A DNA stretch of 64,000 bases from Thermoanaerobaculia bacterium (GTDB taxonomy: Bacteria > Acidobacteriota > Thermoanaerobaculia > Gp7-AA8): the NCBI GenBank assembly GCA_035626775.1, contig DASPNA010000078.1, positions 42,771 to 106,770 of the forward strand, read 5' to 3'. Positions 12,040 through 12,400 of this stretch are shown piece after piece (the first letter of the stretch is position 1; every line of letters starts with the position of its first letter). Under the pieces are notes generated by a model that made no database searches, was not told the origin of the DNA, and saw only the letters and a program-made list of their open reading frames with translations. The position numbers were made by a program, and so were the translations under genes.

Positions 12040-12400
12040 GCCAATGTTGCGATGATGGCCCATCGCGCCACCACTGCTAGCTCCGGCTCGTTGACATCTG
12101 CGATGAAGCATTCTCGCCGGAACCACTTGCCTCGATGGCCTGTCGCGCCACCGCTGCGAGATCCGACACGTTGACATCCGCGACAGAGCGTCCGTGCCGT
12201 ACCTCCTGCCTCGATGGCTCATCGCACCATCGCTGCCGAGCTCCGATACGTTGACATCCGCGATGAAGCGTCCGTATCGAACCTCGTTGCCTCGATGACC
12301 TATCGCGTCCTTCTCGGCCGCATCCGCACGTTGAACATCTGCGATAGAGCGTTCGTGCTGATGCGAGCGTCAACGTAGGTCCGCGATCGCATTCGCGCAA
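12040..12400. repeat. Tandem repeat array, about 80-bp unit, about 4.5 copies, degenerate
   Basis: Units start with GTTGACATC at 12090, 12170, 12250 and 12330. Conserved blocks GTTGACATCYGCGAYRRAGC and TGCCTCGATGRC..TCGCRCCA. Confidence 0.7.

Follow-up and report, generated by a model that had tools for sequence, protein, structure and literature searches.

The window, i.e., the whole 64-kb stretch of DNA analysed here, carries an array of degenerate 80-bp tandem repeats between a DUF1028 gene and a gene for a CreD-family membrane protein, and this array occurs as a single copy within the window. TRF delimits it to 12054-12358, with a period of 80, 3.8 copies, 75% matches, 3% indels, and a score of 285, so that the array flagged by the sequence-only reading of this DNA is real. 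The unit starts proposed there at 12090, 12170, and 12250 all carry GTTGACATCYGCGA exactly; a unit is also present at the fourth proposed start, 12330, but it contains a one-base insertion and reads GTTGAACATC. With up to two mismatches allowed, GTTGACATCYGCGA has six matches against 1.58 expected, a number reached in none of 100 shuffles, and a second conserved block, TGCCTCGATGRC, recurs at 12128, 12207, and 12288. Pairwise identities between units range from 60 to 81%, in agreement with an earlier figure of about 70%, and homology between the copies extends over the whole 80-nt unit with no spacer, which bears out the view that the array is not CRISPR-like. The gap that holds the array had been given as 670 bp, a length obtained only when the CreD-like ORF is extended to a TTG at 11955; with the start at the ATG at 11799, the call made in a JGI soil metagenome contig that is identical over the locus region, it measures 826 bp (11800-12625). 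The extent of the flagged element had likewise been drawn too narrowly, as the conserved sequence also takes in a diverged fifth module with a terminator (12043-11965) and about 155 bp upstream (12372-12523).

The minus strand offers the best reading of the unit. Read on this strand, the TTGACA of each unit becomes UGUCAA, an invariant segment of the RNA, and a promoter scan detected no sigma-70-like site at the in-unit TTGACA, which is thus not a promoter hexamer. Folding of 11960-12460 compared with shuffles gave z = −3.46 for the minus strand and z = +0.61 for the plus strand. A strong intrinsic terminator was found by a terminator scan on the minus strand only, consisting of a stem-loop at 12002-11974 with 11 pairs, 10 of them G-C, followed by AUCUUGUUUU. 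The reading of the array as the body of one free-standing, structured non-coding RNA gene of about 400 nt, predicted to run on the minus strand from about 12366 to about 11965, is well supported. The RNA comprises four 80-nt modules, joined by short, A-rich linkers of 2-3 nt, and a fifth, variant one in which the terminator forms the second hairpin. The features of the locus are, in the 5' to 3' order of the minus strand:

12626-13660, minus strand: DUF1028 gene, upstream flank of the array
12372-12523, minus strand: conserved upstream control region (alignment of 16 loci and nhmmer profile alignment)
12471-12466, minus strand: TGCCCA box of the upstream region
12458-12454, minus strand: TTGCA box of the upstream region
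12446-12440 and 12436-12430, minus strand: two TGTGGAA boxes of the upstream region, 10 bp apart
12417-12411, minus strand: TGTAACA box of the upstream region (family form TGTAACA-N2-GAAA)
12400-12395, minus strand: putative −35 element TTGCGC, placed from conservation alone
12377-12372, minus strand: putative −10 element TACGTT, with a 17-nt spacer to the −35 element, likewise placed from conservation alone
12286-12366, minus strand: module 1 (nhmmer core match; stem of hairpin 1 from U12366)
12206-12285, minus strand: module 2 (CM R1 match at 12203-12285, 78.9 bits, E = 1.8e-13)
12126-12205, minus strand: module 3 (in the 48-module alignment A3; nhmmer core match)
12044-12125, minus strand: module 4 (CM R1 match, 81.8 bits, E = 4.8e-14)
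11965-12043, minus strand: terminal variant module (diverged module by CM, 25.5 bits, E = 0.0037)
10576-11799, minus strand: CreD-family gene (PF06123, membrane protein), downstream of the array

Elsewhere in the window, the module CM has one weak match at 50300-50380 on the minus strand (17.7 bits, E = 0.12), which leaves several positions unpaired and 8 of the 10 core bases unaligned and is most likely due to chance. ARAGORN reports no tRNA or tmRNA in 11800-12650; its call of a 97-nt “tRNA-Asp” with anticodon ATC at 19884-19980 on the plus strand is odd in both length and anticodon and is probably a false positive.

Module fold and covariation

Each module is predicted to form two adjacent hairpins. 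Hairpin 1 starts with a 13-bp stem, which leads through an asymmetric internal loop and a 2-bp helix to a 7-nt loop (L1); in the internal loop, R14 A15 Y16 G17 lie opposite A29 U30 G31 U32 C33 A34 A35, and all these bases are near-invariant save for the alternations at R14 and Y16. In hairpin 2, a stem of 11 bp, whose central run of non-canonical positions is mostly G-A, carries the 7-nt loop L2. Within a module, every one of the seven positions of L1 is complementary to L2. Loops of 7 nt that are complementary over seven positions are also found in ColE1 RNA I/RNA II, but here the loops lie in adjacent hairpins of one module, the modules are arranged in tandem, and there is no antisense target.

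Within the window, the L1 of module 1, CUAUCGC (12347-12341), is perfectly complementary to its L2, GCGAUAG (12306-12300), and the same is true of module 2 with UCAUCGC (12266-12260) and GCGAUGA (12225-12219). In module 3, an A-to-G change in L1 (CUGUCGC, 12186-12180) is offset by a U-to-C change in L2 (GCGACAG, 12146-12140), while the loops of module 4 (UCAUCGC, 12106-12100, and GCGAUGG, 12066-12060) include one G-U pair. The L1 of the terminal module, CUCUUGU (12030-12024), is matched by the terminator loop, ACAAGAG (11991-11985), and this combination covaries between loci, with CCCUUGU/ACAAGGG in L011, CCUUUGC/GCAAAGG in L015, and CCUUUGU/ACAAAGG in L006. The invariant segment reads AGAUGUUCAAC in module 1 (12340-12330), GGAUGUCAAC in modules 2 (12259-12250) and 3 (12179-12170), and AGAUGUCAAC in module 4 (12099-12090). 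Hairpin 2 of module 1 (CCGAGAAGGAC...GUCAUCGAGG) reappears in the first module of most of the loci displayed.

The three-helix model, which includes the loop-loop helix, was tested on two alignments. In a MAFFT alignment of 48 modules built without structure information, 87.6% of the cells were paired, against 25-41% with slid partners, double changes occurred in 24 of the 31 pairs, and the loop-loop helix was paired in all 48 modules. The second alignment contained 132 distinct modules, aligned by a CM from which the L1-L2 pairs and the pairs 18-19/27-28 had been left out; here 90.2% of the cells were paired (at most 39% with slid partners), double changes affected 26 of the 33 pairs, and the kissing helix was 98.6% paired with three covarying positions. 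About one-tenth of the paired cells in the 132-module test were G-U, which become C-A mismatches if read on the opposite strand. Structure-blind mutual information over 423 unique modules placed pairs of all three helices among the top scores and added the pair U19-R27 (UA 276, UG 79, CG 31) beside the invariant C18-G28. Covariation thus supports every helix, in sequence comparisons spanning 132-423 distinct modules from about 105 loci, with the proviso that modules within a gene are paralogues and their counts overstate the number of independent evolutionary events.

The register of the loop-loop helix is that of the single module: L1 fits the L2 of its own module better than that of the upstream neighbour in 147 cases, equally well in 94, and worse in 6. 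Even the usually invariant part of the kiss changes with compensation in L094 (CUGGUGC/GCGCCAG). At bases 13-19 and 23-37 conservation exceeds 90%, the stems covary, and RNAalifold independently arrives at most of both stems. Its prediction also includes a rival helix of 3 bp between columns 16-18 and 25-27, with Y16-R27 (CG 24, UA 18, and CA 6 in 48 modules), G17-C26, and C18-G25, corresponding in module 3 of the window to 12190-12188 with 12181-12179. This helix may compete with the 2-bp helix and the loop-loop pairing, in which case L1 might not always be free; it may reflect a switch in conformation or be an artefact of phylogeny. A comparison by eye of the internal loop with K-turn, sarcin-ricin/loop E, and T-loop motifs gave no convincing likeness, and a mimicry of the tRNA-Asp anticodon loop via U-G-U-C-A in the invariant segment is speculative.

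Relatives, control region, and neighbours of the gene

The same gene occurs in more than 100 sequences from soil Acidobacteria. An exact-pattern scan of one genome per species returned 18 loci, 16 of which belong to Thermoanaerobaculia or unclassified Acidobacteriota MAGs; L014 from a Phycisphaerales MAG and L018 from an Actinomycetota MAG were rejected as chance matches inside coding sequence. All convincing genome matches are from Thermoanaerobaculia or other Acidobacteriota. A tandem-core pattern retrieved 91 further metagenome stretches, mainly from soil judging by the contig names, and found no array in viral contigs. Since adjacent CM matches overlap by 2 nt and are suppressed, the CM was unsuitable for counting modules, and the nhmmer core profile was used instead. 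The layout is the same in all 74 complete genes: the upstream profile lies directly 5' of module 1, followed by the modules, with the terminator module at the 3' end. Complete genes contain two (10 genes), three (8), four (20), five (20), six (2), seven (9), eight (3), nine (1), or ten (1) modules, and incomplete contigs have up to 14-15. At the syntenic locus, the number of internal modules is four in the window, three in L010, and two in L021.

In two independent assemblies of the same population, L002 (ENA k141_95513) and L003 (GCA_035626595.1, DASPNJ010000057.1), the contigs both end at window position 12358, before the invariant core of module 1, likely where the assembly graph branches at a core common to co-occurring strains. 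As assembly breaks at the shared core, arrays may be under-represented in MAGs. The short contigs L022, L034, L037, L094, and L098 were considered as possible transcripts and rejected, as they end in chimeric junctions within the invariant core and offer no usable transcript ends. In L094 (Ga0127473_1031906), the array (1-577) is fused at the terminal module to AT-rich eukaryotic 18S rRNA (578-1397), while in L098 (at about 866) and L037 (at about 480) arrays are fused to coding sequence within the invariant core. The rRNA chimera in L094 is at most a weak hint at an RNA-derived data set and hence at expression.

Upstream of the modules, conserved blocks (at least 90% in an alignment of 16 loci and in an nhmmer profile alignment of 85 unique sequences) alternate with variable sequence. 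Throughout the family, they follow one another over about 150 bp in the order TGCCCA, TTGCA, two TGTGGAA, TGTAACA-N2-GAAA, TTGC, a gap of 17-18 nt, and TAnnTT, and the boxes are unique within the window. The best reading of TTGC and TAnnTT is a −35/−10 pair situated below activator sites, which would place the transcription start at about 12368-12364, at the foot of the first stem. The direct TGTGGAA repeats, set 10 bp apart, resemble a site for a response regulator and can be likened to the sites through which GacA/UvrY control rsm/csr genes. Inspection by eye led us to reject a sigma-54 or ECF promoter for the upstream boxes, the spacing being wrong. The conserved upstream 100 nt may conceivably be transcribed as a 5' domain of the RNA; by eye, they show only a weak hairpin of 3-4 bp around the second TGTGGAA box.

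Of the gene families flanking the RNA, none is shared by more than 10 of 108 loci, and their orientation is not constant; the downstream genes are unrelated, lie on either strand, and are often convergent. Because it lacks a conserved neighbouring gene, the RNA is free-standing and presumably acts in trans, and a leader or riboswitch (no conserved same-strand gene class follows the RNA as its 5' UTR would require) and a type III toxin-antitoxin locus are excluded on the same grounds, together with the often convergent downstream genes. Spurious miRNA models aside, Rfam 15 matched neither the 64-kb window at the gathering score nor ten other loci at E ≤ 0.1. The Csr/Rsm CMs likewise detected nothing, whether at the gathering score in the window, at E ≤ 10 in 11700-12750, or at E ≤ 0.1 in the 10 other loci, and keyword and sequence-string searches of the literature found no description. 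Within Rfam 15 and the literature searched, the RNA family is undescribed; it has a fold unrelated to known families, but the logic of repeated modules has precedents.

Proposed function and alternative explanations

The best explanation for the locus as a whole, to which we assign a probability of roughly one half, is a non-coding RNA gene of kissing-hairpin modules that serves as a multivalent decoy or scaffold. Every module would expose an identical, invariant surface, made up of the internal loop together with the half of the kissing helix whose sequence does not vary, by which the RNA could bind and titrate multiple copies of a single partner, most likely a protein. The capacity would be set by the number of modules, which evolution has varied from 2 to at least 15, and the output by the heavily conserved promoter region. 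A decoy or scaffold is favoured because a repeated unit, a drifting number of units, and a single conserved promoter are the hallmark of stoichiometric binding. The layout of the transcription unit, the fold, and the variation in module number are established by the analysis; the mechanism proposed for it, a multivalent decoy or scaffold with a logic analogous to that of CsrB/RsmZ but a partner other than CsrA, falls short of even odds. Only tentatively do we suggest a new class of bacterial modular RNA, in which 3-16 kissing-hairpin domains would titrate or assemble a global regulator in soil Acidobacteriota or self-assemble via loop codes.

Like the RNA described here, CsrB/CsrC/RsmX-Y-Z are encoded by free-standing genes with their own regulated promoter and an intrinsic terminator and consist of many repeats of one binding element whose number varies widely between species. 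Their unit is a short GGA hairpin, whereas that of the window RNA is an 80-nt two-hairpin kissing module from an Acidobacteriota lineage. A CsrA sponge was considered, as GGA is enriched in the window RNA (15 on the minus strand versus 2 on the plus strand) and CGCGGAUGU resembles the SELEX-derived CsrA site. It was rejected since the G is only an R family-wide: the consensus is G-R-A at one conserved unpaired site and R-G-A at the other, with GGA at 178 and 124 of 485 modules, respectively, and at neither site in 224 of the 485, i.e., nearly half; in the genes L006 and L040, GGA is found at none. Because GGA is conserved at neither unpaired site, the RNA is not a member of the Csr/Rsm family. 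Tandem structured protein-binding units also carry function in the NORAD repeat units and the Xist A-repeat, an analogy only, as the window RNA is bacterial, much smaller, and made of units that are structurally far better defined.

Acidobacteriota are among the most abundant soil bacteria, and to our knowledge few regulatory RNAs are known for them. More than 100 examples make up the RNA family defined by this locus; its architecture is unusually clean and backed by covariation, its control region is strongly conserved, and its freely evolving module number is a signature of stoichiometric-binding RNAs. If this is a new class of RNA that acts either by titrating or assembling a regulator or by self-assembly, the family would represent a regulatory layer in an abundant soil phylum that is parallel in function to Csr/Rsm yet has an unrelated fold. 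A single 80-nt module could serve as bait for an RNA-binding regulator, and the promoter motif TGTGGAA-N3-TGTGGAA offers a handle for defining the regulon. For RNA structural biology and RNA nanodesign, a natural tandem of individually addressed loop-loop modules is a further point of interest.

Among the alternatives, taken in descending order of probability, tandem small-molecule or ion aptamers that would buffer or sense a metabolite in a pocket formed by the internal loop and the kissing helix are unlikely. The invariant bases cluster at the internal loop and the loop-loop junction and the stems covary, as in riboswitch aptamers, a pattern that suits a small-molecule aptamer just as well as a protein-binding RNA. 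The purine riboswitches, too, have hairpins that lie side by side and touch through their loops. The terminator is moreover part of the fold of the last module, comparable to a terminator-embedded aptamer, of which an example is named in the title of PMC6478431. Against such aptamers, no Rfam riboswitch model matches, and with no conserved gene downstream and often a convergent one, there would be nothing to switch. We also know of no aptamer that occurs in 2-15 tandem copies with free variation in number.

It is rather doubtful that the RNA is a precursor cut into unit-length small RNAs, acting either as a ToxI-like antitoxin or as a base-pairing regulator with the invariant seed AUGUCAAC. 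Type III antitoxin loci consist of a promoter, tandem direct repeats, and a terminator, and the locus in the window shares this layout, with a promoter region followed by tandem pseudoknot-like repeats; the short, A-rich linkers between the modules could be cleavage sites. In the type III antitoxins ToxI, CptI, and TenpI, tandem direct repeats with pseudoknotted units likewise share one promoter and a Rho-independent terminator, but the units measure about 36-45 nt and accompany a toxin gene, in contrast to the 80-nt units found here, and the window array is a chromosomal single locus absent from viral contigs. No toxin endoribonuclease (ToxN/CptN/TenpN) is encoded immediately downstream on the same strand, a position taken in the window by the CreD-family gene, while no neighbouring family is shared by more than 10 of the 108 loci, and a type III toxin-antitoxin system was rejected for want of the toxin gene. 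The repeats of ToxI are near-identical, whereas identity between the units here is as low as 60%, and no obvious target complementarity to a base-pairing regulator was found within the window. Type III toxin-antitoxin systems are the subject of PMC3401426. Among the ideas raised in the sequence-only reading, that of a repetitive small-RNA locus comes closest, except that a single predicted transcript of five modules with one promoter region and one terminator takes the place of several genes.

An architectural RNA whose loops pair between molecules and thereby build oligomers or networks, as in ROOL, GOLLD, and OLE, appears improbable. Covariation between L1 and L2 fits pairing in cis or between identical molecules alike and cannot distinguish between the two. 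Seven contiguous loop-loop pairs between hairpins joined at their base would be geometrically strained and would require hairpin 1 to bend sharply; its long, conserved internal loop could, however, be the hinge that permits pairing in cis. Some genes use one loop code across modules (four in L006), so that pairing in trans would be promiscuous rather than ordered. Large bacterial RNAs that form homo-oligomeric complexes are documented in PMC12286853. ROOL, GOLLD, and OLE are also large, structured, free-standing bacterial non-coding RNAs with covariation support, but they are single complex folds present in Rfam, whereas the window family is a chain of repeated modules that is not in Rfam.

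That the repeats matter only as DNA, whether as iterons, as other protein-binding sites, or as a neutral VNTR, and have no function as RNA is very improbable. The number of modules does differ between relatives, from two to four at the syntenic locus and from 2 to 15 across the family, which is the one element of the earlier VNTR suggestion that stands, and the contigs of two other assemblies break at the edge of the array. The iteron suggestion fails: compensatory changes preserve the RNA helices in place of a strand-symmetric conservation of the DNA, and a promoter region and a terminator bracket the array in every complete gene. A purely DNA-level role is excluded because G-U pairs, sensible on one strand only, are frequent and because folding is strand-asymmetric, with only the minus strand folding better than shuffles. 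A repetitive protein-coding region has next to no probability, even though two minus-strand ORFs (66 and 107 aa) overlap with the array, as the 80-nt period, not being a multiple of 3, shifts the frame at each unit, none of the five overlapping ORFs matches a Pfam family at E ≤ 1, stops occur in all three frames of the RNA strand, and the pattern of substitutions is that of a paired RNA; the earlier description of the gap as non-coding is thereby upheld.

The intergenic sequence on either side of the RNA gene contains, in addition, long hairpins with tandem-repeat arms, located in the window at 11861-11944 and 12535-12627 (GGTTCCTCG three times against CCGAGGAAC four times, and GAGTCTCA 4.4 times against GAGACTCT 2.9 times). 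Similar palindromes with other unit sequences lie in the intergenic sequence beside the RNA gene in L006 (about 4023-4130), L019 (about 1372-1470), L021 (about 3600-3680), L013 (about 4440-4540), and L008 (about 1975-2005), and it is these repeat-armed palindromes that draw the spurious miRNA matches in the E-value mode of Rfam. They look like a lineage-wide family of “microsatellite-armed palindromes” in Thermoanaerobaculia.
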